Shown here piece by piece: positions 2-63,266 of a stretch of DNA of 64,000 nucleotides. Made by a program: the position numbers and the translations under genes. The notes below the pieces were generated by a model. The model was not told the origin of the DNA. It worked only from the letters and a program-made list of their open reading frames with translations, and made no database searches. Source of the stretch: Patescibacteria group bacterium (GTDB taxonomy: Bacteria; Patescibacteriota; JAHJAL01); the NCBI GenBank assembly GCA_049322675.1, contig JBMORM010000009.1:222132-286131 (forward strand), written 5' to 3'. Position 1 is the stretch's first letter; each line of letters begins with the position of its first letter.

Positions 2-3000
2 TATTTGAATGGAAACGGCAGTTATCTGCTTGCCAATGACGAAAAAAGTTTGCATCCGACGAGCGCTTTCACCTGGGAAGGTTGGGTTTGGAAAGATCCG
101 GCGGTCAGCAACAGACAAGCCGAAGAACCGATTTTGGCCAGCAAATACGATGGTGGAAACAATGGTGAATTTGTCGTTTATTACAACAAAAATAATAAAT
201 TGCAGTTGAGAGTGGCGGATGGCAGCAGCAATGCATTGTCCAACGAATCGAGCCTAGTCAGTCCGCTCAATTGGCATCATGTGGTGGTAACTTTTGATAG
301 CGGAGTGGTCAAATTTTATATCGACGGAGCATTGGACATGACTCAAACTTTGTCTGTAACCAATTTGACGAAACCGCCATACAATAATAATCCGACAACA
401 ATGTCAGATTTGTATTTGGGCAACGATTGGCAATTAACAAAGGGCGCTTTTGTCGGTTACTTTGATGAAGTGGCTTATTACACCAGGGCTTTGACTTTTG
501 AAGAAATACAAAATCATTTTTCGATTACTGAAACTGGAGAAAATGGGGTGACAGTCAACAATCAGGACACTCTCGCCTACCCGACCGCGGGTTTGATAAC
601 AACCAGTAATAACGCGCAAGAATTGATGAATTTAAATTTTGACGAAACTTTGGCGGATAGCCACGGAGCGACACCAACAACAATGATTGAAACTAGCTGG
701 CAGAGACCGACTTTGAATCAAATATCATATGGCGGGAATACGAATAATAATATTGTTTTGGATTTGGGTGTTTCCGGTAATTGGGATGATGCCGGTTTGC
801 ACACTCCGGAAATAATAAGAGAGGGCAATACTTATAAAATGTGGTATGCCGGAACCGATGGAACCAACTATCGGATTGGATTAGCCACAAGTTTTGACGG
901 AATAACTTGGACAAAATTTAACGGGAATAATTGTACGGGGACAACCGGCAATGGCTGCGTATTTGATATTTCCAGCAGTGGTTTTGATAGCCAATATTTG
1001 ATGTCTCCAAGTATTATCAAAGATGGGAATGGTTATCACATGTGGTATTCGGGATACAACGGCGGTTGGGGAATTGGATATGCCACAAGTGCAGATGGTG
1101 TTAATTGGATGAGACAAAATAGCGGCAATACTGTATTAAGTCTGGGCGGGGCGGGAAGCTGGGATAATTTAGTCGTTGCTCATCCAAGTGTAATGAAAGA
1201 AGGCACTTTGTATAAAATGTGGTATGAAGGTAGCGGTTCTAATTACCTGATTGGATTAGCGACCAGTACGGACGGAGTGAATTGGACGAAGTATGATAAT
1301 GCAAATGATGCGGCTTGTGGATACAGCGAAGCAAATGATGACGGATGTCTTGTTGGTTTGGGAGCAAGTGGAGAATTTGATTCTACTCATCTACAAACGG
1401 TAAATATACAAAAATATCAGAAAAAATACTATTTATTTTACAGTGGAGACTCGGCAGGCAGTTTTACTCATAAATTGGGTCTGATGACTAGCGACAACGG
1501 TATTGATTGGACCAGAGAAAATGATGGTGATCAAATAATGGATTGGGGAACAAGTGGTGCTTGGGACGACTTCTCTCTTCGATCTCCAGCAGCAATAATA
1601 CAAAATAATCAGATGATGATTTTTTATGCCGGCAATGATTCTACTGATCAACGCATCGGGCTGGCGACGATGGATTTTGATCCGGGGCGGTTTGGGAAAT
1701 CGCTTTATATCGGCAACAATGATCAATATATTTATTCTTTGAATGATAAAATTAACCGCCGAGCGGGAACGATCAGTTTCTGGGCCAAGTTGGACAATGT
1801 TGCTGATGGTTTGCATGAAGTGTTCAATATTTTTGACAAAGACAATGGTCAAGACGGACTCTATCTGGCCATGCAAAATAATCAAATCGCTGTCGGATTG
1901 AATGGAGAACAAAACATTTTGACAGGCAAGGCGGATTTGACCAACAATTATTGGAACCAGGTGACATTGAGTTGGGAAAAACCAAGCGCCAACAATAAAA
2001 ATTTAAGATTATATGTCAATGGACAACTGATTGACAGTGTTGCTTTTGCTAGTCCGATTTCTAGTGGTTATGACAGTATCCAGTTGGGTGGCAATCCGGC
2101 TGAAAGCCGAGATTATCTCAAAGGCAATTTGGATGATTTTAGAATATATAGTCAGGCCGTCGGGGATGATGCAGCCAAAGAATTATATGAAGGGTCTTGG
2201 GGAAATTCCAGTAAAAGAAACCAAGACTTTGATAGCAATAGCGCAACCGTGAATCCGATCAGTGAAGGCACGATTGAATTTATTTATACTTCCGATTGGA
2301 GCTCGGCCGGAGATAACAACGTGAGAGTTTTGGCTGATAGCCTAGGCGGAGATGGTGCAAAATATGGTTCACAATATCAAAATAGTCAGACCGCTTTCAA
2401 CCGGTTGAGGATTTGGAAAGATGAGGGAACGGAGGCAAACACTAGTGATAGATTACATTTTGGAATACTGGACAATGACGGTGATTTGTACGAAATATAT
2501 ACCAATGAGACGATTGATTTTGCTCAAGGGACAAGTTACAAGATTGCCGCTATGTGGGACTTGGACAACAATGATCTGACTACGGGCGGAAGTAATATTA
2601 TGCGCCTGATAGTGGATAATGCAGTAGTGGCCGGTGACAATTTTACGACCGGAACCACCGCCAACAAGAAAAAAAATGGAAGCGACACAAGTAACACAGA
2701 ACCAATAATAGTGACCGCTGCACCAGAGAGATTTTATATCGGTAGCGGCAAACCAAACAAACAGACCAACCGATTGGCCAATCCAAGTTTTGAAGAAAAA
2801 ACCGGCAGTGATCCGAGCAATTGGAATAAAACCGGCACGATTAATTTTGATCAAACCGGCAGTAATAGTAAATTTGCCGCTTCGGCTGTATCGATCACCG
2901 GACCGGATACGACAAATAAATTGTCACAAACGATTTCGGGCGCAATACCGGGAACATATACTTTGTCCTGGTGGAGTAAGGGCACTACGGCAACCGCTAC

Positions 3001-4633
3001 TCAAAAAGTATATATTTCTTATCCGAGTAGCAATCAAACGGTCAACAATGATCCGGGAACAAATTATGTTTATAATCAAACGACTTTTACCACGACAGCA
3101 ACCGGCAATGTAACGGTAGAATTGTCGGCTGATGCGGGCGAGACTGTTTGGTTTGATGGTTTGACACTGGTGAGAAGTAGATTGGACGAAAACTACCAAA
3201 ACACTTCGAGCATATATAGCGATTTTAAAACGACCAATTTCTTGATGAGTCAGGAAGAATTGAACGCGGAAACTTTGGCACAAACATATAATACAACCAA
3301 TAAAAACGCTTCTCTAGCGGGTGAGACAAACAATGTTGAAGCGATCGCAGTAAAGAAGGTAAACACCAATGCGACGGCTGCCGACGACATTCTGTTTGTG
3401 GGAACCAAAGGATATTATTCCGAAGGAGCGGTAACACAAATCACTTTTGGCACAACCGATCAGAGAACCAATGAATACAGGCAGACAAGCGCGGGAACCG
3501 GTCTTACTTCCAATCGCATCAATTCGTTGTCATATAGTCAGGTCAGAAACAACTTGGCAGTAGCGACCGATGATGCCGGCATTTTCGGATTTTTGGAAGA
3601 AACTCCGGCCGTGATAACGATCACATCTCCGATTGGCGGCGAAGAATGGGAGGGAGGCAGCAGTCACAATATTACCTGGATTACCGACGGTGTTTGCGAT
3701 CATGTGGATATTGATTTGTCCACTGATTCGGGAACGACATTTAACCAAAGTATTGTCACATCGTTGGCCGATGCTGGCAGTTATACTTGGGATCCGATTG
3801 CCAGCGTCAACTCCGATCAGGCCAGAGTCAGAGTGGAGTGCGAAGACATTATGGGAAATATCTTGGCCAGTGATATTTCCGCCAATGATTATGTGATCGA
3901 TAGTACCAAGCCGACGGTGACTTTGAATGCAATCAGCAATCCAAATGGCGACAATGTGATATATGGACGAGGTACGGCTAGTGATACCGGTGGCGCTACC
4001 AGCGTCAGCCAGATTCAATACAAAATTGATAGCAATGATTGGAATACCGCCTTGATAACCGCAAATCCCGGCACAACCAATGTCGAATATGACTTTAGCA
4101 CTACGGCTTTGGGCGGGGGCGAGCATACGATATATGTCCGCGCCAAAGACTCGAGTTTGCCGGGTGGAAATGAAACTGATCAAACGATGTCGGCCAGCCG
4201 CAGTTTTAACGTCGATGAATTGAGTGTCAATTTTTCCAAAACATCTTTTGATGCCAATCTGGATGTCGGTGACACTGGTATTTTCAATGATTCTTTGACA
4301 ATCACAGTTTCCGGTTTTGGCACAGCCTACAATATTGGTATCAAAGCCAATGATGTACCTACCCACAATATTTACGATTCAGAAATTATTCCATTTTATA
4401 CCGGCAACGACAACTGGAGCAGTAACACCAAGGGATTTGGTTGGAGATATCAGGGTTACAACAATGGTTATTACAATGCTTTCCCACTAACAGATTATCA
4501 GGTTTTTTATACAGGCAAAGCTAATACTAACGGTGTACCGACCCAAGTTGATTTTAAAGCGGTGGCGGATTGGACGGTGGACGCAGGAACGTATAATAGC
4601 AGCGTGAGCGTGATTGTGACACCTAGGTATTGA
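2..4633 (+). CDS. Giant extracellular multidomain protein 1. It is 5'-truncated by the window edge, with at least 1542 aa visible. Domains in order: LamG/ConA-like; five-bladed beta-propeller (GH43/GH130-like fold); LamG-like; CBM4/9-like; Ig-like; conserved C-terminal module.
   Basis: The ORF is open from the window start in frame 2 and ends at TGA 4631-4633. LamG-type motifs are present (…FTWEGWVWKD…, …LDDFRIYSQAV…). The blade motif G.WD..HP..…Y.MWY.G…IGLATS.DG..W is repeated five times. The C-terminus …SVSVIVTPRY is homologous to the C-termini of the four downstream giant genes. Confidence 0.85.
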   Translation, partial: YLNGNGSYLLANDEKSLHPTSAFTWEGWVWKDPAVSNRQAEEPILASKYDGGNNGEFVVYYNKNNKLQLRVADGSSNALSNESSLVSPLNWHHVVVTFDSGVVKFYIDGALDMTQTLSVTNLTKPPYNNNPTTMSDLYLGNDWQLTKGAFVGYFDEVAYYTRALTFEEIQNHFSITETGENGVTVNNQDTLAYPTAGLITTSNNAQELMNLNFDETLADSHGATPTTMIETSWQRPTLNQISYGGNTNNNIVLDLGVSGNWDDAGLHTPEIIREGNTYKMWYAGTDGTNYRIGLATSFDGITWTKFNGNNCTGTTGNGCVFDISSSGFDSQYLMSPSIIKDGNGYHMWYSGYNGGWGIGYATSADGVNWMRQNSGNTVLSLGGAGSWDNLVVAHPSVMKEGTLYKMWYEGSGSNYLIGLATSTDGVNWTKYDNANDAACGYSEANDDGCLVGLGASGEFDSTHLQTVNIQKYQKKYYLFYSGDSAGSFTHKLGLMTSDNGIDWTRENDGDQIMDWGTSGAWDDFSLRSPAAIIQNNQMMIFYAGNDSTDQRIGLATMDFDPGRFGKSLYIGNNDQYIYSLNDKINRRAGTISFWAKLDNVADGLHEVFNIFDKDNGQDGLYLAMQNNQIAVGLNGEQNILTGKADLTNNYWNQVTLSWEKPSANNKNLRLYVNGQLIDSVAFASPISSGYDSIQLGGNPAESRDYLKGNLDDFRIYSQAVGDDAAKELYEGSWGNSSKRNQDFDSNSATVNPISEGTIEFIYTSDWSSAGDNNVRVLADSLGGDGAKYGSQYQNSQTAFNRLRIWKDEGTEANTSDRLHFGILDNDGDLYEIYTNETIDFAQGTSYKIAAMWDLDNNDLTTGGSNIMRLIVDNAVVAGDNFTTGTTANKKKNGSDTSNTEPIIVTAAPERFYIGSGKPNKQTNRLANPSFEEKTGSDPSNWNKTGTINFDQTGSNSKFAASAVSITGPDTTNKLSQTISGAIPGTYTLSWWSKGTTATATQKVYISYPSSNQTVNNDPGTNYVYNQTTFTTTATGNVTVELSADAGETVWFDGLTLVRSRLDENYQNTSSIYSDFKTTNFLMSQEELNAETLAQTYNTTNKNASLAGETNNVEAIAVKKVNTNATAADDILFVGTKGYYSEGAVTQITFGTTDQRTNEYRQTSAGTGLTSNRINSLSYSQVRNNLAVATDDAGIFGFLEETPAVITITSPIGGEEWEGGSSHNITWITDGVCDHVDIDLSTDSGTTFNQSIVTSLADAGSYTWDPIASVNSDQARVRVECEDIMGNILASDISANDYVIDSTKPTVTLNAISNPNGDNVIYGRGTASDTGGATSVSQIQYKIDSNDWNTALITANPGTTNVEYDFSTTALGGGEHTIYVRAKDSSLPGGNETDQTMSASRSFNVDELSVNFSKTSFDANLDVGDTGIFNDSLTITVSGFGTAYNIGIKANDVPTHNIYDSEIIPFYTGNDNWSSNTKGFGWRYQGYNNGYYNAFPLTDYQVFYTGKANTNGVPTQVDFKAVADWTVDAGTYNSSVSVIVTPRY
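746..1685 (+). other. Five-bladed beta-propeller region (GH43/GH32/GH130-like fold), possibly non-catalytic.
   Basis: Five units of about 55-60 aa: NWDDAGLHTPEIIREGNTYKMWYAGTDGTNYRIGLATSFDGITW; …SPSIIKDGNGYHMWYSGYNGGWGIGYATSADGVNW; …SWDNLVVAHPSVMKEGTLYKMWYEGSGSNYLIGLATSTDGVNW; …KYYLFYSGDSAGSFTHKLGLMTSDNGIDW; …AWDDFSLRSPAAIIQNNQMMIFYAGNDSTDQRIGLATMDFD. No obvious catalytic DP or DPR acid motif is visible. Confidence 0.5.
2762..3179 (+). other. CBM4/9/22-like carbohydrate-binding beta-sandwich inside giant protein 1.
   Basis: NPSFEE…WNKTG…GTYTLSWWSKG…VWFDGLTLVR matches the N.sFE…W…G.Y.ls.w.k…d.v.l pattern typical of CBM_4_9. Confidence 0.4.
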
Positions 4634-4637
4634 ACAC

Positions 4638-4747
4638 AAATTTCCAATTTCCAATTCTCAATTTCCAAACAATATTTGGTTAAGACATTAAAAAGAAATA
4701 ATGAAATATAGAAATAATTTAAATTGGAAAATGGAAATTGGAAATTT
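4638..4747. repeat. Intergenic element of 110 nt with perfect 16-bp terminal inverted repeats (AAATTTCCAATTTCCA … TGGAAATTGGAAATTT). It is built from four direct TTTCCAA-type heptamers and three inverted TTGGAAA heptamers around a 78-nt AT-rich core. It could be a MITE-like element, a long hairpin terminator, or an operator.
   Basis: Read directly. The left arm 4638-4653 is the exact reverse complement of the right arm 4732-4747. The heptamers TTTCCAA TTTCCAA TTCTCAA TTTCCAA lie at 4641-4668 and TTGGAAA ATGGAAA TTGGAAA at 4724-4744. The element sits between the stop of giant gene 1 (4633) and the ATG of giant gene 2 (4771). Confidence 0.6.
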
Positions 4748-4770
4748 AAATAAAAAAATATTTTAAATAA

Positions 4771-7700
4771 ATGACGAAGCAAAAACACAAATCTAAATTA
4801 TATCTTTTCAGTCTGGGCTTGTTGCCGTTGTTGATGATGGGCAATATTTCCGGGGAAAATTTATTGAAAAATATTGCCGGTACTTCCGAACCAAAAGCGA
4901 TTATAGCTCAAACCGGTTTGTTGGCTGACGGGTATTACCGATACAAAGACGATTCAATCGGAGTAGAGTTTGGCGATCGAAACAATGGCGAAACTCAGTC
5001 AGTTACCTTTTTGTCAGCACCTACGACAGAAAAAAACGATAATTATTCGCGACCAAAAAGTATTTCCTGGAAGATAATTGATCCTGATGATAAAAATGCG
5101 GGATGGTTGGAAAAATTGACTACCAAAATTGCCAATAATTTGGGTGGTAGATTTGCTAGCACAAATTGGAAAATTGATGGAGACCAAGCTGTTTTGTACG
5201 AAGTGCTGCCGGATGTTGATTTGCGTTATAAAATATTGCCCGGATTGGGGTTGAAGGAAGAGTTGATTGTAAAAGGGACAAAAGAGCAGGTGGAAGAGAA
5301 ATACTCTTTCGATTTGGTAACCGAACAAGGCTTGAAATTGCAAAAAGCTAGTGAAGACAATCAATACAATTTGGAAGTAGATTCATATTATTTCACGGAC
5401 ACTAGGGACAATTATGTGGCTCACTTTTTGCCACTTACCATTTATGACTCCAATGGACAAAGTAGCAATGAGGCTTCTTTGGATATAACAAATAATGGGG
5501 GTAATGATTACAAAATTACAATAACCCTCGATCATGACTGGTTGTATAACGTCGATCGACAATATCCGATTTTTATCGATCCGACGATCGTCCATGACGA
5601 TTTGACTGATTTTAATACCGGTAACGCTATGAATCGAGTAGAAGCCGTCGCCGGACCAAAAGTGCAGTTGTCCAATCAAGAATTGGCGGCCGGTGCTTCA
5701 ACTATTGGTTTGTGGCATATGAATGAAACTTCCGGTTCCACGGTTACTGATTTTTCCGGTAATAGTAACAATGGCACGGCCACAGGGACCACTATCATTG
5801 ACGGCAAATTGAACAAGGCAAGAAGTTTCAATGGTACTAGTGATTTGATAAATTTAGGTAAAAATCCATCAGTCAAAGGTTCTTCACAAGTCACAATTGA
5901 AGGCTGGATTTACCCGACCAGTTTAACAAATTATTTTCCAATTTATTTCGAATCAAATAATACCAGTGGTTATACCAGGTTGATGCTTCGAGTAGGTACC
6001 GATGGTTCGTTGAATATGGGTGGACGTGATACTGACGGCACCCCTGCTTATGTGACTTTCGCCACTAGCGCAACCGGTCTGATTACAACAAACAAATGGT
6101 ATCATGTGACTGGTGTTTACAATGCAGATACAGATATTCATAAAGTTTATATAAATGGTACCGATGTTACTAGTTCGGGAAATGTGACGGCGGCCACTTT
6201 TCCAAATACTGTTCCGACAGACAATATTTTTCTTGGATTTGTTACCGGAGGAACTTATGCCAGTGGTACTTTGGACGAAATTAGATTAATTAAACGAGCA
6301 TTATCTACAGAAGAAATTAAAGCTGATGCCGGTCTGAGACCTTATGGTGTTTATACTTCCGATGTGCTTGATCTGGAATCGGTCAATCCTACATTTAATA
6401 ATATCAATTGGACGGAAAACGGCGTGCGAACCGGCGATGGTGAAACTGATTTATCAACAACTAGTTTGGTTGCACAGTGGAATTTCAATGAAACTAGTGG
6501 CACGACTGCTTCAGTTAGCGCTGGTAGTTGTGGCAGTAATTGCAATGGCACTTTGACTAATATGACGACTACCGGACAAGATGCCAGCGCCACTTCCGGT
6601 TGGACCGCAAATAATAAAAGATGGGGAGCAGGTGCCTTGATGTTTGACGGTACGGATGATTATGTAGTAGGGATTGGAAATTCAGGCATGTCTGGTAACC
6701 CCACTTTTACTTTGGAGGCATGGTTTAAGCCAAATATATTAAACGATGCTACAATAGTTGGATTCGGAGATGGTAACACTTCTTTAGGTGCTGGTTCAAT
6801 GTTTTTGGGGGCAAATGGTTCACTATCATTAGCAACAGCTGGATCGAATAATGCAACTACTAGCACTGGAATAATAAAATCCGGACAATGGTATCACGTA
6901 GTAATAGTAAAAATTCCAGGTGCTATTAATTCAACCACAAAAATATATATTAATGGAATTGAATATCCGGTTACTGGATCAACTAGTACGCCAAACATTA
7001 CTAATCTGCCGGTTGTCTTCGGTAAATTTCCAAACTACAGCGGCTATTATTTTAATGGCACTATTGACTCCAGTCGGATTTATTCTCGCGCTCTCTCAGT
7101 CGATGAAATTTTGTCCAATTATCAAGCCGGCAATGTCCAATTTCAAACACGCACGGGAACGGACAATACACCGGATGATGGATCATGGGAAGACTGGCGA
7201 GCAGCGGGTAGTGGCGTAGAAACACAAATATTAAATATTGATACCGATAGTAGCAATTGGAACACAGACGAGATTGACGTTACTAATATTGTCAAAACTA
7301 ATGACACTGTCGTCAAACAAGAAGGCTCTGGTTCGCTAAAAATATCTACCGGCGCTGCCCAAGCTGACGCCAATACGGTTGGCTTGTGGCACTTGGACGA
7401 AACCGGTGGATCAGGTGCATATATCAAAGATGGCAGTGGCAATAGCAATCATGGCACACCGACCGGTACTAGTGTTACAAGTGGAATTAGTGGCAAAGCG
7501 AGAAGTTTTAATGGTAGCAATGACTATATTTCCATCCCCAACCCTTCCAGCGGTTTAACTTCTGGCGGAACAAAAACCATTAGTGCTTGGATCAAGACCA
7601 GTTCAACCCGAGGAGTAATTTTTAATTCATATGATGGGACCAATGGCTATCAAATATATGTTGATACATCTGGTAATCTCACTCTATATAGCAATGGCGG

Positions 7701-10700
7701 TGGGGTTCTTGTTACCTCTAGCAAAGTAAATGATAATTTATGGCATCATGTGGCCGCTGTGTGGGACGGGACAAACGCCTATATTTATCTTGATGGTGTT
7801 CAGAAAATTTCTGGAGCCAGAACTATCACTACAAATGTTACTTCGCAAGTTCAAATTGGAGTTCAATGTAATGGAAGCTGTCCAACTAGCGCAGATTACT
7901 ATTTTAATGGTTATATTGATGAAGTAAAAATTTCCAATGTCGCCCGAACCGCCGATGAAATTGCCGAAACCTACCGCATGGGTCGCGATCACCGTTTGGA
8001 TCGCACGATTTCTTCTACTGATTTGTCAGAAAAATCGTCATTACCCTTCTATATCGCCGCTGACAAACCGGGAACCTATTTGGAAACTACTATCGGCGAG
8101 TCCGCTTTTGCCAATAATGTATCAGATAGCAATACGGTTGGTTTGTGGCATTTAGAAGAACAGTCTGGCAGCGGAGCATATATAAAAGATAGTTCATCTT
8201 ATGCCAACCATGGCACTCCAACCGGGACTACTGTATCTGATGGTAAAATTGGTAAAGCTAGAAGTTTTAATGGCAGTAGTGATTATATAAATTTGGGCAA
8301 CAATTCATCTTTATCGTCTGACACTCAAACAATTTCTTTTTGGTTGGCAAACAAAGGCACAAATAAAACGGCATATATTATTGACAGAAGTCCCAATTCT
8401 GACTCATGGGGTACGTTTGGAATTGTATATTATTCCAGTCAACTATATGTTACCGCCGATGGAGAACATCAGGTCGTAATACCGTATAGTTCTCTCAGTA
8501 ATGGAGATTTTCTGACATTTACTTTTAATTACCCAACTGTCAATTTTTATTTAAATGGTAAATTATACAATACCTTAACTTTTTCTAACCATTTTAATGC
8601 AGGCAGTAGCTATGCGACATCAATTGGTAGAGCCGGAGAATATAATAATTATTTTTTTGACGGCGCTATTGATGAAGTCCGCATTGATAATGTTGTTCGA
8701 ACCGCCGACGAAATCCGCCAAGCGTATGAAATCGGTAGTCGTACTCATGCGGTTACAATTGACTTTGCCGCCGGATTGGATAGTGGTGATTTGATTTCTG
8801 GTTCTTCCGACACTTCATTTACTATCGACGCTACCACCAAGGGTTTAAGTCAAAAAGGCGCCAATCTTTATGTTGGCGATAAAATCATCGTTCGTGAAAA
8901 TTATGATGGCACCGAATATGTTGCTCAAGGTTTAGTAAATTCGGTGGATATATCTACCGGCGCTGTGACGGTTAGTACGTGGGATAGCGGATCAACTTTT
9001 CCAAGTAGCGGTTTTACCGTCAAGGCGGATGTTTTTAAATGGCAACGAGAATATTTTGATATCACTTCTTCGATGTCGTCTCAACGTAATGCCGTTACTC
9101 ATATTACCACTCGTTTTACCAACGGCTCGGAAGGACGAACTATATGGTTGGACGATTTTAAATCCGTATCCAACTATTTAACCAATCCTATTGGCAGCAC
9201 TATTACTTCTAGTCCCCATCGCTATTTTCAGTATCGTTTGATTCCGACTACTACCAATATTCAAACCACTCCGTCAGTTGCGGCGATAACTTTGGATTAC
9301 GAAAAATCCAACATGACTATTTCCGGTGGTTCAACCACTCAAACTTCGTTGAACAATAATAACAAGCAATCATTCAATATTACAGTTGGAGGGGTGACTT
9401 GTGATGAAGTAGATACGACTGTAACTGCCCAGGTTTCTTGGAACCAAATCGATTGGTATGAAGTCGATCAGACAATTTCGCCGGTAAACAATCTGAATAT
9501 CACAAAAGATATGAATTTGACTACCATGAACGGTTATCCCACGGCTGAGGGAAATGTCACGATTTATGTTCGCGCCGAAACAGAAACAACAACAAGCAAC
9601 ATCGAATCTTTGATAATATTAAAAGATACTATCAATCCGATAGTGGCAACTATTACTAGCGTCGCGAGCGATGTAAATTTACCATTCAATGACACTACCA
9701 ACGACGGGAGTACTTTGGTTGTTTATACTGCTGCAAGTGATGCCAACACCTGCAAATGGGATGAAAGCGACTTGACTTATGGCGCAATGTCACATTATTG
9801 CGAGTCGACCACTAACTGTACTTTAAATTTGACCGGATATGGCGATAAAGATGTATATATGCGATGTAAAGACAATGCGGGTAACGAAAACAACGATCTA
9901 CTCTCCCCTGCTCCGACTTTTTCTTACACCATCGGTGGTATCAGCATGGATTCGGCTGGTACAGATGAGACGTTTTTGAATAACAATAATAAAAATAATT
10001 TTGGCCTCAAAGGCAATAACATAATTTATGAAGCTACCGGAGAAAATGTCGTTTTGCAGGGATCTTGGAATCAGACTGATTGGTACGATGTAACGACAGT
10101 GGCCAGTCCGGTCAATGGAGAAACTGTATCAGGAGCGGCAGACGTGGCTAGTTGGAATGGCTATTCGGCTGATGGAGATGTCACTGTTTATCTGCGTGCC
10201 AAAGGTGGGACAAGCGAATATAGCGAAATTAGATCTTTTCTAACAACAAAAGACACGACGGAAGCGGGCGTAACCGGGATTGTCAGTGTGGCTGGCGATA
10301 GCGATGTGCCGTTTGTTGATCCGACTAACAATTTGAATACCCAAGTTTTATATACCGCATCGGCGGACGCCGCCAGTTGCAAATGGGACACCAATAGTGC
10401 TTTGACTTTTACGGAAATGGCCAATACTTGCGAGAATACGAGCAGTTGTACTTTGGATTTGGAAGGTCGGGGCAATCATACTGTGTATTTTAAATGCCAA
10501 GACATACATGGCAACAATCAGACCAATAATTATGCTTTGACTTACAGCATCAATTCTGCCAGCGAACAACCTTTGGGTTGGTTGCAAACTCGGACGGTCA
10601 AGATCGATCCGGCAACGCCGCTGGCCGATTATCAAGTGCGGGTGGAATTGACGCCGACTACTTTTGATTATGATAATACCAAATCGGACGGCAGCGATAT

Positions 10701-13700
10701 CAAATTTTATGATGACAACGATAATAAGTTGGAATACTGGACAGAAGAGTGGAACAATCGCGGCACTTCGGTTTTTTGGGTCAAGGTGCCGGTTGGCGAA
10801 ACGGAAAAAATATATTTGTATTATGGTAACTACTCGGGCACAAACGAATCCAATTACGACGATGTTTTTAGTAAAAATTATAATACAAGTGGTTTGGTCG
10901 CCGGTTGGCATTTGGACGATGTCGTCACCAGCAGCACGGTTGCAGACTATTCCAGTAACAACAATACAGGAACTTTGACCAATGGACCAATTTGGCAAGA
11001 GACCGATGGCGGTGGTTGGGCCGATCAGAGCGATCAACATTTTGGTACCGGCTATCACTTGTCTTTTGATGGCAATGATGATTATATCAATGTTCCTCAT
11101 TCGACTAGTGTCGATCCCCAAACTGCCTGGACTTTGGAAACTTGGGTCAATAGGAATTATCTGAGTTCACAACATAGTTTGATCGAAAAATATGCTTGGA
11201 CCAGCGGGACTGGCGGATACGCTATGAGAATTACGGCTGACAATAAGTTGAATGGATTTATCGTCAATGGAACGGCGGCGCAAGGGTGCACGGGTACGAC
11301 CAATATTATGAACGGAGAGTGGTATCACGTCGCTGTCACTTTTGATAGTGCTACTGATTCGATAAGATGCTACGTTAATGGTTTATTGGATGGTTACAAT
11401 AGTGCTGCAACGTACAATCCGATGTCTTCATCTTCTGCTTCTTTAAAAATTGGAGCAAGGGGCAATGATGCCGGATCAGTATTAAATGGGTATTTGGACG
11501 AACCAAGAATATATAGTCGCGCTTTATCAAGCGACGAGGTACGATCTCAATTTGAACGCCGACAATATGGCGCAAATGGCCCGCAAACTATATTGGGCGG
11601 CTCGAGATTGGTTAGCGAAAGTCGCGCCGGTCAAACCGACTGGCTGGATAGCAATTGGAATTACCGCACCGGTTTGACCGTCTTCAACAACAACAATGTT
11701 GATGCGTTAGATGATTATCAAGTGGTTTTCAATTTGGATACCAAATACTTGGTTGACAGCGGCAAAGTATTGAGCAGCGGCAATGATTTGAGATTCACTG
11801 ATAGCGATGGATTGACTTTGCTTGATTATTTTATCCACACCGATCTTAATAATGTGAATACTAAAATATTTATCAAAATACCGGAAGTTGGTGCCGATAG
11901 TCAGAAGAAAATATATATGTATTATGGCAATCCGTCGGCAGAAGCGGCTAGTTCCGAAAGTGCCTTGGATTTTTATGACGACTTTGAAGATGGGATTATC
12001 AATTCAACGAAATGGCCCACTCAATCAATAGGAAGTTATATTACCGAAGAAAACGGTCAAATGAAGATGACCGGAATCCGTGCCGGTAATTATTATCTAC
12101 AAAGTCCGGCTATTTCTTCTGCAAATCTTAATGCAGTTATCGAAGCTCAAACCAGTACACCTACTTTGCCGACAAATTGTTGGTCGCCAGTTTCTTGGTG
12201 GAAATCCACCAGCGCCGGTTTGAGTATTATCGAGTGTCCAGGTTCAATTTTGGACAACAATGATTATGCTTGGCACAATGGTTTGTTGGATAGTGCCCGG
12301 ACAGGGAAGAATGTTTCAGAGACTCATATAAATCAATTGAAAATAAAGGATAATTTTAATACTTCTCTTCAAACCAAATTTTTGGATAGCTATTTTTCGG
12401 ATTGGACGGCAAATTATTTTGACAATTCGCAAGATAGTTATTTTATTAGACTGGGAGCTCGGGCGGATAATTATGATCCTGGTTCCATCCAAACTATGGA
12501 TGGTCGGATAGACTGGGTACTGGCGCGTAGATATACTGAACCGGAACCACGAGTCGGAGCGTATAAAGTAGCCTACACCAGCAAAAAAGGAAATATTGAG
12601 AGCGAGACTTGGTACGGCACGATTTATGTTGAAGAACCAGTAATAGTAAATCCGGGTGCAACTTTGACGATTCAACCGGGAACGATCATCAAATTTAATA
12701 CAGACACATATTTGTTGGCGGAAAACAGCACAATCAATGCGATAGGTCTAAGTTATGATCCGATTTATTTTACTTCGGTCAACGACAATAACCGCGGGAC
12801 AATTATGGACAATTCAACCGGAAATCCGGTGGCGGGTGACTGGATGGGAGTTTATGCGATAGGAAATGGGGATAATATTATGAAATTTTGCGATGTGGCT
12901 TACGGCGGAAAGACCAATGAATTGGGGGGGATAAATTATCGCGGGATGGTCAACGTACGTGAAGACAACATGATGATTGCCAATACGGTTTTTAATAATA
13001 GCGCCAATGCCGATATTTTTGCTTATCAGGCCGATCCGTATATTTATCGCAATAATTTGGGCGACAGTCCATATGGTTTGTATATTAATGCCAATAATCA
13101 AATTATTACTCATGCCATCGAATACAATAGTTTCGCAAATACGACCGAGGCGGCTGTATATGTCGATAATTTGCCGAATACCGACACCGACTCGGGCCCG
13201 GGTTTGGTTTTGCGCAATAACGATATCGACGAGACCAATACCGGATTTTATATCAAAAATATGTCCGGCGATAGTATCAGGGACAACAATGCTGAAAATA
13301 CGATTGATACCAGACAAAACGCTTTCAAAAATCAGACCGGATATATGTGCTACTTTGATGTCGCTGCGGGTGACTGCAAATTTGATCGGACGAGTGGCGG
13401 CGAAATTTTGTTTGATATCAATAGTGCAATTTTGGAAATACCAAATGGTAACGAACACTGGATGGCCGGTAGTACGCAAACTGTTTCTTGGAATTTCAAC
13501 AATGGCAGCAGCAACGGAAGTTATGTGGATATTTATCTTTCGCCCAACAATGGAGAAGAATTTGATTTTACCGTGGCCGCCAATCTAAGATGCGATGGAT
13601 CGGGATCCGGTCCGGGTTGCAATGGCACAAGCGGATCATACAGCTGGTTGGTATCGGGCGTGCCAAACAATGAAAAAAGATTAAAGATAGTTTTGAGAGA

Positions 13701-14685
13701 TAGCGCCGGAAATAGTTTGGTGGAAGATATTTCGGACAAAAACTTTCAAATCAACTTGATTACGGATGAATTGTCGGATGTCCAAGCGGGAGCGGGAGCA
13801 AAACACACTATCAAATTTGCGATTCCTTTTGACTGGCCGGAGTTGGTCAATGACAGTTTCAAAATTTCTTTCCCGGCGCAGTTTGATTTGAACGAATTAA
13901 ACGCCGGCGATATCGCGGCCTCTGGCGGAGATGTGGTTTGGGGAAGTCCGGTTATCAATAGCTTGAGTAACACTATCGCAATTCCATTCACCGGAACATT
14001 GGATGATACGGATGGTTTGATTACTTTTGGATTGGGAAGTGAGAGCAGTAGGATAATCAATCCAGAGGAAAATGGATCATATCGACTAACTATTACTCTT
14101 CATGATAATCAAACCGGTGCCAATCCGGCGATCAGACGACTTTCAACCAATATAAATATCAATGATGATTTAGCTTTTGCTTTCCATGTACCAGCCACGT
14201 TGCAACTTTCTATTCGGGATATTACTGATACTACGGATATTGATCGTTTGAGATTCGAAAATCCTATGGCCAATACTATCCTGGATGTAAGTCATTTGAT
14301 CAAAGTATCAACCAATGCTCACAATGGTTATTCGGTGACAATATCCGAGGATCATGATTTGACCAGTCCGTCCGGGGCGATAATTCCTGATTTTGTCGGC
14401 AGCAACGAACAACCTCAACCTTGGATCGCTCCGCCGGGAGGAACAGTCAATGGCTATTATGGATACCACACGGACGACACTGATTTGTCTTCCGGGACAG
14501 CGGACCGGTTTGCGCTGGCGGACAGATGGGCGGCGGCGATAACTGATCCCAAGGAAATAATCTACTACCCCACTTCGACTCAAGATCAAACCAACACTAT
14601 GACTTTCCGCTTACAATTTACTCCAAAACAAGTGTCGGGTCATTATCAACATACTGTTTTTTACACAATCACTCCAAATTATTAA
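4771..14685 (+). CDS. Giant secreted multidomain protein 2 (3304 aa). Domains in order: signal peptide; conserved N-terminal module; about 5 LamG/ConA-like modules; two four-Cys modules; two DUF2341-LamG pairs; ConA-like glucanase-like domain; right-handed beta-helix; Ig-like; conserved C-terminal module.
   Basis: ATG at 4771 and a signal-peptide-like N-terminus MTKQKHKSKLYLFSLGLLPLLMMGNISG. The LamG motif VGLWHL(D/E)E.GSGAYIKD.SGN.NHGT…GKARSFNGS.DYI recurs. The C-terminus is …TVFYTITPNY, followed by a TAA stop. Confidence 0.9.
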   Translation: MTKQKHKSKLYLFSLGLLPLLMMGNISGENLLKNIAGTSEPKAIIAQTGLLADGYYRYKDDSIGVEFGDRNNGETQSVTFLSAPTTEKNDNYSRPKSISWKIIDPDDKNAGWLEKLTTKIANNLGGRFASTNWKIDGDQAVLYEVLPDVDLRYKILPGLGLKEELIVKGTKEQVEEKYSFDLVTEQGLKLQKASEDNQYNLEVDSYYFTDTRDNYVAHFLPLTIYDSNGQSSNEASLDITNNGGNDYKITITLDHDWLYNVDRQYPIFIDPTIVHDDLTDFNTGNAMNRVEAVAGPKVQLSNQELAAGASTIGLWHMNETSGSTVTDFSGNSNNGTATGTTIIDGKLNKARSFNGTSDLINLGKNPSVKGSSQVTIEGWIYPTSLTNYFPIYFESNNTSGYTRLMLRVGTDGSLNMGGRDTDGTPAYVTFATSATGLITTNKWYHVTGVYNADTDIHKVYINGTDVTSSGNVTAATFPNTVPTDNIFLGFVTGGTYASGTLDEIRLIKRALSTEEIKADAGLRPYGVYTSDVLDLESVNPTFNNINWTENGVRTGDGETDLSTTSLVAQWNFNETSGTTASVSAGSCGSNCNGTLTNMTTTGQDASATSGWTANNKRWGAGALMFDGTDDYVVGIGNSGMSGNPTFTLEAWFKPNILNDATIVGFGDGNTSLGAGSMFLGANGSLSLATAGSNNATTSTGIIKSGQWYHVVIVKIPGAINSTTKIYINGIEYPVTGSTSTPNITNLPVVFGKFPNYSGYYFNGTIDSSRIYSRALSVDEILSNYQAGNVQFQTRTGTDNTPDDGSWEDWRAAGSGVETQILNIDTDSSNWNTDEIDVTNIVKTNDTVVKQEGSGSLKISTGAAQADANTVGLWHLDETGGSGAYIKDGSGNSNHGTPTGTSVTSGISGKARSFNGSNDYISIPNPSSGLTSGGTKTISAWIKTSSTRGVIFNSYDGTNGYQIYVDTSGNLTLYSNGGGVLVTSSKVNDNLWHHVAAVWDGTNAYIYLDGVQKISGARTITTNVTSQVQIGVQCNGSCPTSADYYFNGYIDEVKISNVARTADEIAETYRMGRDHRLDRTISSTDLSEKSSLPFYIAADKPGTYLETTIGESAFANNVSDSNTVGLWHLEEQSGSGAYIKDSSSYANHGTPTGTTVSDGKIGKARSFNGSSDYINLGNNSSLSSDTQTISFWLANKGTNKTAYIIDRSPNSDSWGTFGIVYYSSQLYVTADGEHQVVIPYSSLSNGDFLTFTFNYPTVNFYLNGKLYNTLTFSNHFNAGSSYATSIGRAGEYNNYFFDGAIDEVRIDNVVRTADEIRQAYEIGSRTHAVTIDFAAGLDSGDLISGSSDTSFTIDATTKGLSQKGANLYVGDKIIVRENYDGTEYVAQGLVNSVDISTGAVTVSTWDSGSTFPSSGFTVKADVFKWQREYFDITSSMSSQRNAVTHITTRFTNGSEGRTIWLDDFKSVSNYLTNPIGSTITSSPHRYFQYRLIPTTTNIQTTPSVAAITLDYEKSNMTISGGSTTQTSLNNNNKQSFNITVGGVTCDEVDTTVTAQVSWNQIDWYEVDQTISPVNNLNITKDMNLTTMNGYPTAEGNVTIYVRAETETTTSNIESLIILKDTINPIVATITSVASDVNLPFNDTTNDGSTLVVYTAASDANTCKWDESDLTYGAMSHYCESTTNCTLNLTGYGDKDVYMRCKDNAGNENNDLLSPAPTFSYTIGGISMDSAGTDETFLNNNNKNNFGLKGNNIIYEATGENVVLQGSWNQTDWYDVTTVASPVNGETVSGAADVASWNGYSADGDVTVYLRAKGGTSEYSEIRSFLTTKDTTEAGVTGIVSVAGDSDVPFVDPTNNLNTQVLYTASADAASCKWDTNSALTFTEMANTCENTSSCTLDLEGRGNHTVYFKCQDIHGNNQTNNYALTYSINSASEQPLGWLQTRTVKIDPATPLADYQVRVELTPTTFDYDNTKSDGSDIKFYDDNDNKLEYWTEEWNNRGTSVFWVKVPVGETEKIYLYYGNYSGTNESNYDDVFSKNYNTSGLVAGWHLDDVVTSSTVADYSSNNNTGTLTNGPIWQETDGGGWADQSDQHFGTGYHLSFDGNDDYINVPHSTSVDPQTAWTLETWVNRNYLSSQHSLIEKYAWTSGTGGYAMRITADNKLNGFIVNGTAAQGCTGTTNIMNGEWYHVAVTFDSATDSIRCYVNGLLDGYNSAATYNPMSSSSASLKIGARGNDAGSVLNGYLDEPRIYSRALSSDEVRSQFERRQYGANGPQTILGGSRLVSESRAGQTDWLDSNWNYRTGLTVFNNNNVDALDDYQVVFNLDTKYLVDSGKVLSSGNDLRFTDSDGLTLLDYFIHTDLNNVNTKIFIKIPEVGADSQKKIYMYYGNPSAEAASSESALDFYDDFEDGIINSTKWPTQSIGSYITEENGQMKMTGIRAGNYYLQSPAISSANLNAVIEAQTSTPTLPTNCWSPVSWWKSTSAGLSIIECPGSILDNNDYAWHNGLLDSARTGKNVSETHINQLKIKDNFNTSLQTKFLDSYFSDWTANYFDNSQDSYFIRLGARADNYDPGSIQTMDGRIDWVLARRYTEPEPRVGAYKVAYTSKKGNIESETWYGTIYVEEPVIVNPGATLTIQPGTIIKFNTDTYLLAENSTINAIGLSYDPIYFTSVNDNNRGTIMDNSTGNPVAGDWMGVYAIGNGDNIMKFCDVAYGGKTNELGGINYRGMVNVREDNMMIANTVFNNSANADIFAYQADPYIYRNNLGDSPYGLYINANNQIITHAIEYNSFANTTEAAVYVDNLPNTDTDSGPGLVLRNNDIDETNTGFYIKNMSGDSIRDNNAENTIDTRQNAFKNQTGYMCYFDVAAGDCKFDRTSGGEILFDINSAILEIPNGNEHWMAGSTQTVSWNFNNGSSNGSYVDIYLSPNNGEEFDFTVAANLRCDGSGSGPGCNGTSGSYSWLVSGVPNNEKRLKIVLRDSAGNSLVEDISDKNFQINLITDELSDVQAGAGAKHTIKFAIPFDWPELVNDSFKISFPAQFDLNELNAGDIAASGGDVVWGSPVINSLSNTIAIPFTGTLDDTDGLITFGLGSESSRIINPEENGSYRLTITLHDNQTGANPAIRRLSTNININDDLAFAFHVPATLQLSIRDITDTTDIDRLRFENPMANTILDVSHLIKVSTNAHNGYSVTISEDHDLTSPSGAIIPDFVGSNEQPQPWIAPPGGTVNGYYGYHTDDTDLSSGTADRFALADRWAAAITDPKEIIYYPTSTQDQTNTMTFRLQFTPKQVSGHYQHTVFYTITPNY
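10573..10840 (+). other. DUF2341 domain, copy 1, in giant protein 2.
   Basis: LGWLQTRTVKIDPATPLADYQVRVELTPTTFDYDNTKSDGSDIKFYDDNDNKLEYWTEEWNNRGTSVFWVKVPVGETEKIYLYYGNYSG matches the DUF2341 pattern W.yR..i.i………DG.D.rF.d…..L.ye.E.w………WVKvP………IY.YYGN. A LamG module follows immediately. Confidence 0.6.
11641..11940 (+). other. DUF2341 domain, copy 2, in giant protein 2.
   Basis: WLDSNWNYRTGLTVFNNNNVDALDDYQVVFNLDTKYLVDSGKVLSSGNDLRFTDSDGLTLLDYFIHTDLNNVNTKIFIKIPEVGADSQKKIYMYYGNPSA. Confidence 0.6.
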
Positions 14686-14769
14686 GAAGTATAATGGTAG
14701 GGGAAGAAATTTTTAATTTTTAAATATGTTTTGTTGGACTATCAAGATGAAAAACAAAATAAAATAAAT

Positions 14770-17700
14770 ATGAAAATCCCAAAAATAAAAAAATTGCTCC
14801 AGTTTACTCCCATGGTATTGTTGTGCCTGGCTTTGGTGGTGGTACTGATTTTGAAGGTGAGAATTCCGACGACTTCGAAAGAGATTTCGGTCAACACCAA
14901 AGAACAAACCCAGTCAATGACGGACAAACAGGCCGAGTCGGACCAAAGTCCGACTGCGGGCAAGAAAAAGATGTCGGTGACAACCAATATCAGCAAGATT
15001 GAGATTGCCCCGGTGGTTGACGAAAAACAGCAAAAATACTTGTACAATGAGGCGGTGGAGGCAATTATCAATGTCGATCGAATCAGAAATGACGACTCCA
15101 CTTTGCCGTCAGACAATGCTTTCAGTAAAAAGAAAGACAAGCAATATTGGTGGGATTTGATCAATTGGTTTGGCAAAGAAGTAGTCGAAGCCAAAAATGA
15201 TGATTTTACCCTAAAAAATTATTTGGATGCCAATCAAATCAGAACCGAAGTGCAGCTAACAGAGGAGCAAAAAGATTTTGCCGTTTCTTTGGAAGTGCCC
15301 AACAGTAAAACAGTAACTTCGTCACGCGGTGATTTTATCCAATACGAATTTGATCAAAGTACAGTTGTCCAGTACCAGTTGAAAAATAATCGTTTGAAAG
15401 AAAATATTATTTATAATTTTAAACCGGCGGAGAATTATTTTTATTTCAATATTGACCGGGCGGACAATCTGGAGATAATTCCTAAGCCCGATGGAGAAAT
15501 TATTATTCAAACCAAAGATGAACCGCGACATATCGTTGCGACCGTGATGGCGCCGACAGTGGTGGATCGCAAAGGCAAAGTGGGAAAAATTAGCTTGGAA
15601 TATTCAGAAAATCGATACAAGTATATTATTGACCAGGCTTGGTTGGATCAGGCTAATTACCCGGTGGTAATAGATCCTTCTTTGCAACTTGGAGCGGTAT
15701 TGTATTATACCGGCGGGACGGTAAATGTCGAATGGCATGGTGACGGTTCAGACTACCGTGATACCGGCGTATTTTTGTATAAAGACGAAGTATCGTTGTA
15801 TTCGCCGATTAATCAATATTTGATCAGTAATATTGATTACGGGGATTGCAATCCGGCGGTAGGTGTTTTTCAGCTTTGCAATAAAGGAACAACCAGTTTT
15901 AATCTAGGCGATCAATATGTCGGCCAGGAATTGAAATTTGGAAATAAAGTCTATCAGAGTGACATAATTTATTACACCGGTCCCGCCAGTCGCAATCCGG
16001 ATAATCAAGTTCACACCATTATAGTCTATGAAGAAAGTTTTAATGCATATGTTATCAGATTTCTTCGAAATCATCCGACAAAAAATGGGATGTGGTATGG
16101 TCCGTCTGTCGATATTTGGCTGACCGGCGGATTATCCGATTCGCCACCGCCAGTTGATCCGACTCCCACCACTTCCCCCGAACCGATTTTGTCCAATCTG
16201 TCCTGTGTCAGCAACAGCGGACAGATAACCGTCAATTTTGACACTACCGGTTTTGGTTCCACTGCAACTTATGCCATAAAATTTGTCGGAAATGGTACGC
16301 AGTATCTCCAGTCAAACAACACTTTGGGCGATACGGAAGTCTGGAGAACTAAAGGAGAATGGGGAAATAATATCCGCGTAACCGGTTTGACCGCCGGCAC
16401 GGATTATACAGTTTCAATTTCCGCCAAACCGGATGGAGCCGGTACGGCGTTGGCTTATGGACCGACTAAAAATACCACCGAGATTTGTTCTCAGGATACT
16501 TTCAATGATTCAGGACAAGTTTGCGGTGATGGCGTAATCCAATTTCCAGAAGAATGCGATGACGGTAATACCAATGACGGAGATGGTTGTGACCGCAATT
16601 GCACCAATGAACCAGCGGCAGTAACCGATCCGCCGACAGTTGACATCAAGGCTAACGGTTCAGATAGTCCTTCGACATTGCCAAACAACAGCACGGTCAC
16701 CTTGTCTTGGACTTCAAGCAATGCCACTTCTTGTACTGCTTCCGGCAGCTGGTCGGGTGATAAGGCGACAAACGGAAGTGAAAACCAAGGCCCGCTCACT
16801 ACTGGCACCTATACATATGTTATTCAATGCACCAACTCGGCCGGCAGTCGCTCGGATAGTGTTACTATCACGATTTTTTCTCCTCCATGTGACATTACTT
16901 ATACATATTCTACAACAAATACAGATGTAAATACTGTTTCTAATCATTGGCATGGGACTGTATGTATTAATAGAAATTTATTTATCGCTGGTTCCAATAC
17001 TTTGACTATAGATCCAGGCACGGTAATAAAATTTTATGTTGGCAATGCCAATGAAAGATGGCGTATTTTAAATTACGGTACTCTAAATGCTATCGGTACT
17101 GAAGATAATCCAATTTATTTTACGTCTTTTCGAGACAATTCTATCGGTAATATTGTACCTGGAGGATCAGGGACGCCTCAAAAAGGAGAATGGAATGAAT
17201 TGAATTTCAACGCCTATGGTGATAGTTATCAGGGCATTGGTGAACTAAACAACGTAGTAATCAGATATGCAACTACCGGTATCAATGATTATGTTCATAC
17301 TGCCTTTAGTACATCTCCCCATAAACCCGAACCAATTTTGAGAAATATTATTATAGAAAACTGTTCCGGCGATGGAATATATATTGAACGCAGTCATCCA
17401 ATACTTGAGAATGTTACTATCAGAAATAACGGCGGTAATGCAATTTATCTCAATTTGTATGGTTATTCAAATTCTAATGGTCGTGCCAATGTAAATTTTC
17501 TTGGTAATAATGTTGCTATAAATAATAAATTAGATGGAATATATGTTAATAATCATGCACTTTCGTCAACTGCAATATTGGAAAATATTACTTGGAATAA
17601 TGACTTCCCTTATTATTTAGCACAAAATTTTAATATTGAACGCGATGCGATTTTATCTATTGAAAAGGGAACTGTTATTAAATCTGCTGATGATGTCACA

Positions 17701-21681: not shown

Positions 21682-21697
21682 GCCCATTTTGGGAGTA

Positions 21698-21726
21698 TTG
21701 ATAAATATTTGTTTTGGTGATATAAT
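21698..21726 (+). promoter_or_regulatory. Sigma-70-like promoter for giant gene 4: TTGATA, a 17-nt spacer, then TATAAT.
   Basis: TTGATA lies at 21698-21703, the spacer aatatttgttttggtga at 21704-21720 and TATAAT at 21721-21726. This is about 95 nt upstream of ATG 21822. Confidence 0.5.
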
Positions 21727-21821
21727 AATAGGATTTATCTAAAGGATAGGTATGATTGATTGTACCTTGTTGATAATTAGATAAATCAGTTAGAAAAACA
21801 AAAATCACATACAAATTTTTT

Positions 21822-32696: not shown

Positions 32697-32698
32697 TA

Positions 32699-52021: not shown

Positions 52022-52071
52022 TCAAAATTTTATACAATTGAATTGTTTTTATTTTAATAATAAAAAATAAA

Positions 52072-53702: not shown

Positions 53703-53731
53703 AATTGATAGGGTGACACTATCAATTTTTT
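53703..53731 (+). terminator. Rho-independent terminator downstream of gpmI.
   Basis: AATTGATAG (53703-53711), a 7-nt loop GGTGACA, then CTATCAATT (53719-53727) form a perfect 9-bp stem, followed by a run of six T residues. Confidence 0.6.
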
Positions 53732-53750
53732 ATGCCAAGTGAAGGAGTGT

Positions 53751-63251: not shown

Positions 63252-63266
63252 ATTAACAATTTATAA

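Follow-up and report, generated by a model that had tools for sequence, protein, structure and literature searches.

What is a 110-nt inverted repeat built of heptamers doing in the short gap between two giant genes? The question is raised by positions 4638-4747 of a 64,000-nt stretch of DNA (hereafter the window) from a Patescibacteria group bacterium (GenBank assembly GCA_049322675.1, contig JBMORM010000009.1). The original prediction, made from the letters alone, offered three options for this element and for a degenerate second copy near the other end of the window: a mobile element resembling a MITE (miniature inverted-repeat transposable element), an iteron-like operator that co-regulates surface-protein and glycan loci, or a long-range hairpin acting as terminator or attenuator. 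Our preferred reading, to which we give a probability of about 0.55, is that the main element is one of the dispersed copies of a DNA-level foldback repeat, with heptanucleotide arrays for arms, and is tolerated behind the stop codon of gene 1.

The spacer between giant gene 1 (open reading frame 5..4633, stop codon TGA at 4631-4633) and giant gene 2 (ATG at 4771) is 137 nt long and co-directional, both genes lying on the plus strand, and the 110-nt foldback begins 4 nt after the stop. Its layout is TGA, ACAC, a first array (AAATTTCC AATTTCC AATTCTC AATTTCC AA), a 52-nt core, a second array (AAATTGG AAAATGG AAATTGG AAATTT), 23 nt and ATG. The 5′ arm (4638-4668; units AATTTCC AATTTCC AATTCTC AATTTCC) is free of G and the 3′ arm (4721-4747) is free of C. 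As predicted, the 16-nt ends match exactly, AAATTTCCAATTTCCA (4638-4653) being the reverse complement of TGGAAATTGGAAATTT (4732-4747); extended to 27 nt (4638-4664 against 4721-4747), the arms are 89% complementary, and they enclose 56 nt. Tandem Repeats Finder (TRF) calls period-7 arrays at 4639-4668 (AATTTCC, 4.3 copies) and 4721-4746 (AAATTGG, 3.7 copies). Exact TTTCCAA heptamers start at 4641, 4648 and 4662 on the plus strand and at 4724 and 4738 on the minus strand, and the variants TTCTCAA and ATGGAAA bring the tally to the four direct and three inverted units that had been described around the core. That core (4669-4720) is A-rich, pairs only weakly with itself and resembles none of the cores in related elements. 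The 23 nt from the 3′ arm to gene 2 (4748-4770) are A/T-rich and hold neither a T-run directly after the stem nor a Shine-Dalgarno-like sequence.

The element is real and non-random. It is the only perfect inverted repeat in the window of at least 16 nt with arms no more than 130 nt apart, and no such repeat arose in 100 shuffles that kept local composition. The double unit TTTCCAATTTCCA, allowing up to two mismatches, occurs 19 times against 6.0 expected, and seven of these 19 fall within the main element and the second site.

Evidence for dispersal comes from other genomes. The element was compared by BLAST with all fetched loci, and two matched. Positions 4638-4668 are identical at 31 of 31 nt to 5293-5323 of locus L128 (Patescibacteria CTOTU29514), including the odd third unit AATTCTC, and the arm matches positions 288-321 of locus L295 at 32 of 34 nt (94%). 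Both relatives are complete foldbacks of ~120 nt (folding free energy, ΔG, -44 for L295 and -45 for L128; z-scores -5.2 and -6.4), which agree at ~85% in the left half and at the right end. In the window copy the outer stem is kept, and the core is different and non-pairing. The L295 copy has a Bac_transf stop codon 8 nt to one side and the wzm ATG 3 nt to the other; at this same position a relative of the window organism, L169 (84% identity in the Ham1-like protein, hereafter Ham1), has an unrelated spacer of 150 nt. The L128 copy lies 14 nt past the 3′ end of a tRNA-Lys gene and is followed by T8 and then by a gene for a 783-aa GT4 glycosyltransferase. Neither spacer is orthologous to the window site, so the 31/31 and 32/34 matches establish arm homology at unrelated loci. 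One element family, recognised by the order of its arm units, therefore fills non-orthologous spacers in at least three genomes. Because that order is kept across loci and genomes, the copies point to a dispersed family rather than to independent products of slippage. A BLAST search of the L295 element against plasmids gave no match.

The junction itself offers no comparison across species, since the giant genes lack close homologues: the best orthologue candidate reaches only 40% identity, in a match that covers the first 600 aa of gene 2. These genes form a run of five on the same strand (window positions 5..52021; >1542, 3304, 2316, 3624 and 6442 aa) rich in LamG-type domains.

The architecture extends far beyond these three genomes. 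One genome per species (596 Gb) was scanned for TTCCAATTTCC-N60-90-GGAAATTGGAA, which gave 64 loci, ~59 of them genuine heptad foldbacks, that is, inverted heptad arrays. With uniform composition ~1 site is expected by chance (596 Gb x 31 gap lengths / 4^22) and with AT-rich DNA a few, hence ~1 to 5 overall; five of the 64 matches look like chance (two in Methanoregula, one in Flavobacterium and two in proteobacteria). The hosts are Magasanikbacteria (nine sites in one genome) and eight other lineages of the candidate phyla radiation (CPR), Planctomycetota (18 loci in seven metagenome-assembled genomes, with flanks of 60-70% GC), Saprospiraceae and other Bacteroidota, Acidobacteriota, Stahlbacteria, Armatimonadota, Verrucomicrobiota and Bdellovibrionales. 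The reversed arrangement, with the G-containing arm first, was found at no fewer than 120 metagenome loci as long NTGGAAA / TTTCCAN arrays. Viral contigs had no match to the two-arm pattern in either arrangement; 102 single matches there to the plain 16-mer were dismissed as chance.

Within genomes the copies have common ends. The nine in Magasanikbacteria, ~103 nt long, share the sharp ends AATTTCAAAATCC...GGAAATTTGACATT, and Stahlbacteria copies match the left one, by reading, at 28 of 31 nt, so that ends are shared across phyla. In Phycisphaerae, eight copies have the exact ends ATTTCC...GGAAAT in common, within GC-rich flanks; their cores are unrelated, GC-rich and self-pairing, and lengthen the stem to a total ΔG of -54 to -100. 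In the six loci of Phycisphaerae 5_bin.122 (L105, L118, L125, L148, L155 and L163) a conserved, non-complementary third unit accompanies the shared ends, and the cores are 35-55 nt, GC-rich and mutually unrelated (hairpins of -54 to -72 kcal/mol). Between two Magasanikbacteria copies (L104, 7032-7136; L120, 4886-4990) the central ~50 nt are inverted between the arms, and the outer ends are unchanged. Two Acidobacteriaceae metagenome-assembled genomes carry the same foldback at the orthologous position before gcvP (L122, 1314-1426; L146, 4305-4417), with perfect arms of 28 nt that extend past the heptads; this sharing by two species indicates that such elements can persist across species.

The unit varies as well. 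Heptad arrays or inverted pairs with other units occur in relatives and other CPR genomes (L173 at 8227-8298 and 9875-9899 / 10040-10064; L296 at 2640-2725; L167 at 6752-6815), the units being AATTAAT, ATTACGA/TCGTAAT, AAGTCAA/TTTGACC and TTGAAGA/AATCTTC. Where flanking genes were read, most of these arrays begin a few nt past a stop codon or end just before a start. In L297, a contig of 52% GC with a LamG homologue, ACCGGAA / TTTCCGG arrays of ~4 units, including one inverted pair, lie at 16528-16556, 16651-16678, 17103-17131 and 18032-18048, and one of them fills a convergent spacer. These arrays are a GC-richer variation on the heptad theme, and the 7-nt period is more general than the TTTCCAA unit.

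The second site lies in the spacer between wzm and Ham1. On the gene (minus) strand it reads TGA, AAG, an array AATTTCC AATTTCT AA, a core, an array TTGAAAA TTAAAAA TTGAAAA TTATAAA TTG, TTAAT and ATG, or, by order, wzm stop, 3 nt, AATTTCCAATTTC, spacer, (TTGAAAA/TTAAAAA)n, 8 nt and the Ham1 ATG. The layout of the main element is thus repeated, with a C-type array just past a stop and a G/A-type array just ahead of a start. The stop-proximal arm AATTTCCAATTTCTAA (63328-63346) follows the wzm stop (63347-63349) and AAG. The start-proximal arm (63257-63287; TTGAAAA TTAAAAA TTGAAAA TTATAAA, called by TRF as a CAATTTT array of 4.4 copies) stops 5 nt (8 nt counting the partial unit TTG) short of the Ham1 ATG (63251-63249). 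The predicted copy therefore stands in its shared 13-mer (GAAATTGGAAATT, 63331-63343), its layout and its position between wzm and Ham1, but it is decayed. A 16-nt inverted repeat is left at 88%, the core has no similarity to that of the main element, and folding does not exceed that of shuffled sequence (z +0.7); G-to-A decay has removed the GG of the 3′ arm, which so no longer pairs with the other arm. We infer an older, decayed example of the spacer layout seen at the main element. The window has, in its 64 kb, one full copy and one decayed copy. A further TRF array in the window (14708-14723, plus strand; AATTTTT, 2.3 copies), of the AATTTCC-like unit type, has no partner arm and lies 22 nt past the gene 2 stop.

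The wzm-Ham1 spacer, unlike the main junction, can be compared with its orthologues, and we did so in relatives with 84%, 82% (L295) and 73% Ham1 identity. L169 has the wzm stop, 3 nt and AATTTCYAATTTC in common with the window. The window and L295 share TTRRAAA units and TTGTTAMWATG ahead of the Ham1 start, and a homologous TTAGAAATTAAAAATTGTTACAATG is present in L295. The rest of the spacer differs among window and relatives, so spacer turnover in the lineage is fast, with heptad arrays tending to stay at both ends.

Such turnover bears on the idea that the main element is a purely local product, a slippage array followed by local inverted duplication or template switch, with neither dispersal nor function. 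Heptanucleotides are the commonest long simple repeats in bacteria, with slippage as the proposed cause, the relatives' spacers are full of period-7 arrays with other units (ATTATTC, AATTAAT, ATTACGA), and the orthologous spacers gain and lose arrays piecemeal. An independent origin is nevertheless hard to reconcile with 31/31 identity, doubly substituted AATTCTC included, at an unrelated locus of another genome. Nor would it account for the sharp-ended multi-copy families in other genomes, and the window's other five spacers have no lag-7 signal. We consider a local origin quite improbable.

Where do these elements sit relative to genes? Elements with the C-containing arm first have 37 flanks abutting a gene 3′ end (within 30 nt) against 18 at a 5′ end, and their median distance from the stop codon is 5.5 nt; for those with the G-containing arm first the counts are 64 and 25. 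Among 70 elements, 56 are in co-directional spacers, 10 in convergent and 4 in divergent ones, while 16.5% of background spacers are divergent. The class architecture is found in many phyla, nearly always just past a stop codon, with sharp ends and no duplication of the target. Genes downstream of class members are mostly housekeeping ones (dnaE, frr, der, hisS, dnaN, gcvP), and surface or glycan genes are not enriched among them.

This position would also suit a functional RNA stem-loop between the two giant cistrons, serving as terminator or attenuator, as a barrier to 3′ exonucleases for gene 1, or as an RNase III site uncoupling genes 1 and 2. Folding had been named as a check by the original prediction, and at the main element it bears out the hairpin, a 27-bp AU-rich stem with a 56-nt loop (ΔG -26.4 kcal/mol) that beats shuffles with a z-score of -3.0 to -3.5 (-5.0 when folded as DNA). 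The same check failed at the second site, where pairing has been lost. Further points in favour are the complete hairpins of L295 and L128, the T8 at the end of the L128 copy and its place after a tRNA gene, the class habit of abutting stop codons and shunning divergent spacers, and the element kept at the gcvP locus in two Acidobacteriaceae species.

Other properties speak against this role. An intrinsic (Rho-independent) terminator has a short G+C-rich stem, a loop of 3-8 nt and then a T-run. Here an AU-rich stem encloses a loop of 56 nt and is followed by TTTAAATAAAAAAA, with UUU only before an A-rich run. A consensus scan of 4500-4900 called no terminator-like site and no promoter-like site on the gene strand. 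Rfam gave nothing at the gathering score across the window, nothing at E up to 10 in 4560-4830, and generic hairpin matches far under threshold on the Magasanikbacteria copy.

Hairpins with AT stems and T-runs do occur after gene 5 (52031-52056; ACAATTGAATTGT + TTTTTATTTT) and after the phosphoglycerate mutase gene pgm (53706-53733; TTGATAGGGTGACACTATCAA + TTTTTT). By their sequence they look like the ordinary terminators of this organism, and our consensus scan misses them because it demands three G-C pairs. As such sites exist elsewhere in the genome, the main element does not have the organism's usual terminator form. In high-copy genomes the element follows five of 41 and seven of 61 gene ends, counted in loci chosen for containing a copy; with so small a minority of ends, the foldbacks are not a general terminator.

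Selection on RNA should favour G·U pairs, and isolated stem mismatches on the sense strand comprise 19 G·U and 22 A·C. This test would, by our estimate, have detected a 2:1 excess, so the arms look maintained at the DNA level. The terminator or attenuator proposal therefore keeps its real stem and the 3′-end position of the class, but lacks the T-run, the G·U excess and the frequency at gene ends. A canonical terminator role is not supported, and we hold a functional RNA stem-loop of any of these kinds to be unlikely as the reason for the element.

The option of an operator is the least probable, and we regard it as very unlikely. It would have a repressor read contiguous 7-bp units in either direction and so co-regulate the surface-protein and glycan loci. 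WATCACW heptads are bound in this way by omega, a ribbon-helix-helix protein of plasmid pSM19035; the heptads here are both direct and inverted, and both arrangements exist in nature. TTGGAAA, TTGAAAA and TTGACAT units also resemble -35 boxes, and from them the consensus scan makes one promoter-like match before Ham1 at the second site, against 0.7 expected. The main element, though, has no promoter-like site on the gene strand and no regulator gene adjacent, and its arms are 56 nt apart (20-80 nt in the class) rather than contiguous. Across the class the tie to 3′ ends, the depletion in divergent spacers and the dispersal behind unrelated housekeeping genes all argue the other way. An omega-type operator is accordingly not supported, and neither is the proposed co-regulation of surface-protein and glycan genes from the main element.

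As to leaders and promoters elsewhere in the window, the starts at 4771, 21822, 52072, 59127 and 63251 have A/T-rich leaders with no Shine-Dalgarno-like purine run ahead. An extended -10-like motif, TGATATAAT, lies at 21718-21726 in the 140-nt spacer between genes 3 and 4; gene 4 may therefore own a promoter, unlike gene 2.

Assemblies of the same organism break at these repeats. Two Logan contigs, of 10 and 18 kb, each end exactly at one of the two elements. By arithmetic (4640 + 18043 - 1 = 22682) the other end of the 18-kb contig falls inside a perfect 28-nt palindrome, GTAGGGACAGGTCG|CGACCTGTCCCTAC, at 22656-22683. The palindrome is in frame within the coding sequence of giant gene 4, occurs once in the window, and its GTAG...CTAC ends recall REP (repetitive extragenic palindromic) elements tagged with GTAG. 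With a third contig end on an unrelated palindrome, such breaks indicate 'hairpin or repeat' and not necessarily 'multi-copy'.

Breaks at both elements are also what unit-number variation within a population would predict, and this leads to phase variation of the type known from hmw genes, in which unit-number changes in the 5′ leader of gene 2 would alter the stem and hence gene 2 expression. The mechanism is documented for Haemophilus influenzae hmw1A, where (ATCTTTC)n upstream of the gene forms a hairpin in the 5′ untranslated region that is processed by RNase III (PMC12721329). By analogy, a G-free, T/C-rich heptad array makes up the left arm of the main element's long hairpin, and a very large LamG surface-protein gene lies downstream. 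The three closest relatives and the second site precede surface or glycan genes: wzm in L295, the GT4 glycosyltransferase gene in L128, and a Ham1-wzt-glycosyltransferase cluster. There are also differences. The hmw genes have a promoter of their own, proven unit-number variation and at least 10 units, with 10-11 or more needed for the effect; the main element has four units right behind another gene's stop, and its right arm is a true inverted array. The 4 nt from the gene 1 stop to the array leave no space for a dedicated promoter, and none was called. Downstream genes across the class are mostly housekeeping, L295 is a biased case because it was picked via its glycan cluster, the contig breaks are ambiguous, and at the array compared, four contigs of one relative had no unit-number polymorphism. 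Phase variation strikes us as a doubtful explanation.

Several results weigh against our own reading, that of a dispersed DNA-level foldback. No target-site duplication flanks the window copy (ACAC/AAAT), the L295 copy (ATAC/CTTA) or the L128 copy (CCAAA/TTTTT), nor any of nine Magasanikbacteria or eight Phycisphaerae copies. A search of ~190 loci for an autonomous element, as arm pairs 0.5-3.5 kb apart, found only ordinary-looking genes enclosed and no transposase; the enclosed open reading frames were judged by their N-terminal sequences (e.g. adenosylhomocysteinase-like, PRPP-synthetase-like), not by a Pfam scan. The relatives share arms with the window copy and not the core. The Phycisphaerae copies likewise share arms, not cores, which simple replicative spread does not predict. 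The orthologous wzm-Ham1 spacers change their arrays in place, which slippage alone could partly explain. Lastly, given the contig end at an unrelated palindrome, we rejected the assembly breaks as proof of multiple copies.

These results also bear on the MITE comparison. Bacterial MITEs and long intergenic palindromes (Correia/NEMIS and ERIC, for instance) have unique, non-tandem terminal repeats and a conserved core, with a TA duplication in the case of Correia. Like them, the main element is a non-coding element in the 100-150 nt class with terminal inverted repeats (exact over 16 nt, 89% over 27 nt) and a place in transcribed spacers, and its RNA hairpin would be open to RNase III or could alter mRNA stability. 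Unlike them, it has heptad-built arms, variable cores, no target-site duplication and no partner insertion sequence. MITE-like was still the closest of the three options, given arms recurring at non-orthologous sites and sharp-ended multi-copy families; without duplication, transposase partner or conserved core the element is not a strict MITE.

REP units are imperfect palindromes of 20-40 nt tagged GTAG or CGTC (PMC3733652) and depend on a RAYT transposase (PMC3116915, PMC3733652). Their doublets (REPINs) and our elements are alike as ~100-nt intergenic inverted doublets that fold as hairpins, with tens of copies per genome, no target duplication, enrichment at 3′ ends and arms that are not perfectly symmetric. 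Each arm here, in contrast, is a G-free or C-free tandem array starting AAATTTCC that cannot pair with itself and has no GTAG/CGTC tag. A REP/REPIN identity was therefore rejected, the doublet hairpin being present and the palindromic unit and tag absent.

The closest known systems are other heptamers. Intergenic heptanucleotide repeats have been known since the 1990s-2000s (in cyanobacteria, in a survey of 2007 and, in 2015, in Xanthomonas), and to our knowledge they have no agreed mechanism or function. The main element has the features tested for their inverted pairs, namely tandem arrays, position in a spacer and inverted arrays nearby. As reported through PMC4679880, Mrazek (2007) found heptanucleotide units to be the most abundant long simple repeats in prokaryotic spacers and proposed slippage over a 7-nt polymerase footprint as the cause; PMC4692102 likewise credits Mrazek et al. 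(2007) with noting the heptanucleotide excess first. The repeats GGGAATC of Xanthomonas and GGGGATT of Nostoc were described by Rehm et al. (2015; PMC4692102). In Xanthomonas ~4 units are preferred, at 0-50 bp from stop codons, in co-directional spacers and rarely between divergent genes; there are 70-75 inverted heptad pairs per genome, and no function was established (PMC4692102). The unit here (GGAAATT) has the same order of G-run, A-run and T/C, and the ~4 units, the distance of no more than 50 bp from a stop, the co-directional spacer, the rarity between divergent genes and the frequent inverted pairing are also alike. The differences are an AT-rich unit with only GG, to which the G-quadruplex idea does not apply; hosts in the CPR, Planctomycetota, Bacteroidota and Acidobacteriota; families in which the order of units and the sharp ends stay the same from locus to locus and from genome to genome; and arms that can clamp unrelated cores. 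TAACTGA heptamers are a further case of one heptad in the spacers of distant phyla (Beggiatoaceae, Cyanobacteria and Bacteroidetes; PMC4679880), with horizontal spread suggested and no evident mechanism; those are direct arrays immediately upstream of starts, with one inverted case only and a different unit. A literature search for the exact 14-mers of our element gave no match. The main element would best be read as an AT-rich variant of the known, unexplained intergenic heptamer repeats.

How could such an element come about? Arrays would arise and change by 7-nt slippage, the literature's explanation for the heptanucleotide excess. The inverted pair would then spread or persist as a DNA palindrome, by a mechanism that leaves no duplication, and survive at the least damaging place, the short gap that separates a stop codon from the gene that follows. 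Any RNA reading through from gene 1 to gene 2 would carry the 27-bp AU-rich stem and its 56-nt loop, which could slow 3′ exonucleases or attract RNase III. An influence of this stem on the fate of the gene 1 / gene 2 transcript is possible, and would be a by-product or secondary use rather than the reason for the sequence's existence.

A bolder reading, which we consider unlikely, places the window element in a cross-phylum family of duplication-less foldbacks, in which TTTCCAN/NTGGAAA arms clamp unrelated, locus-specific hairpin cores behind stop codons. It would take in TTTCCGG in a mid-GC genome and GATTCCC in Xanthomonas, and would call for a heptad-specific machinery not yet described, such as a protein recognising units of 7 nt, or the templated extension or conversion of arms. 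Neither ordinary slippage nor transposition would then suffice.

For the window alone the gain is modest: the gene 1 / gene 2 spacer can be annotated as holding a palindromic repeat. Such elements are of practical concern, as they fragment short-read assemblies and flag operon junctions at loci of giant genes. New here are the AT-rich version in ultra-small CPR genomes, where each intergenic base is costly, and the use of one heptad to build foldbacks beside gene 3′ ends in very distant phyla without an RNA wobble signature. If the cross-phylum family is true, the machinery would be common to CPR, Planctomycetota, Bacteroidota and Acidobacteriota, and if a dedicated mechanism lies behind it, these foldbacks would amount to small DNA of a new kind, mobile or self-maintaining.

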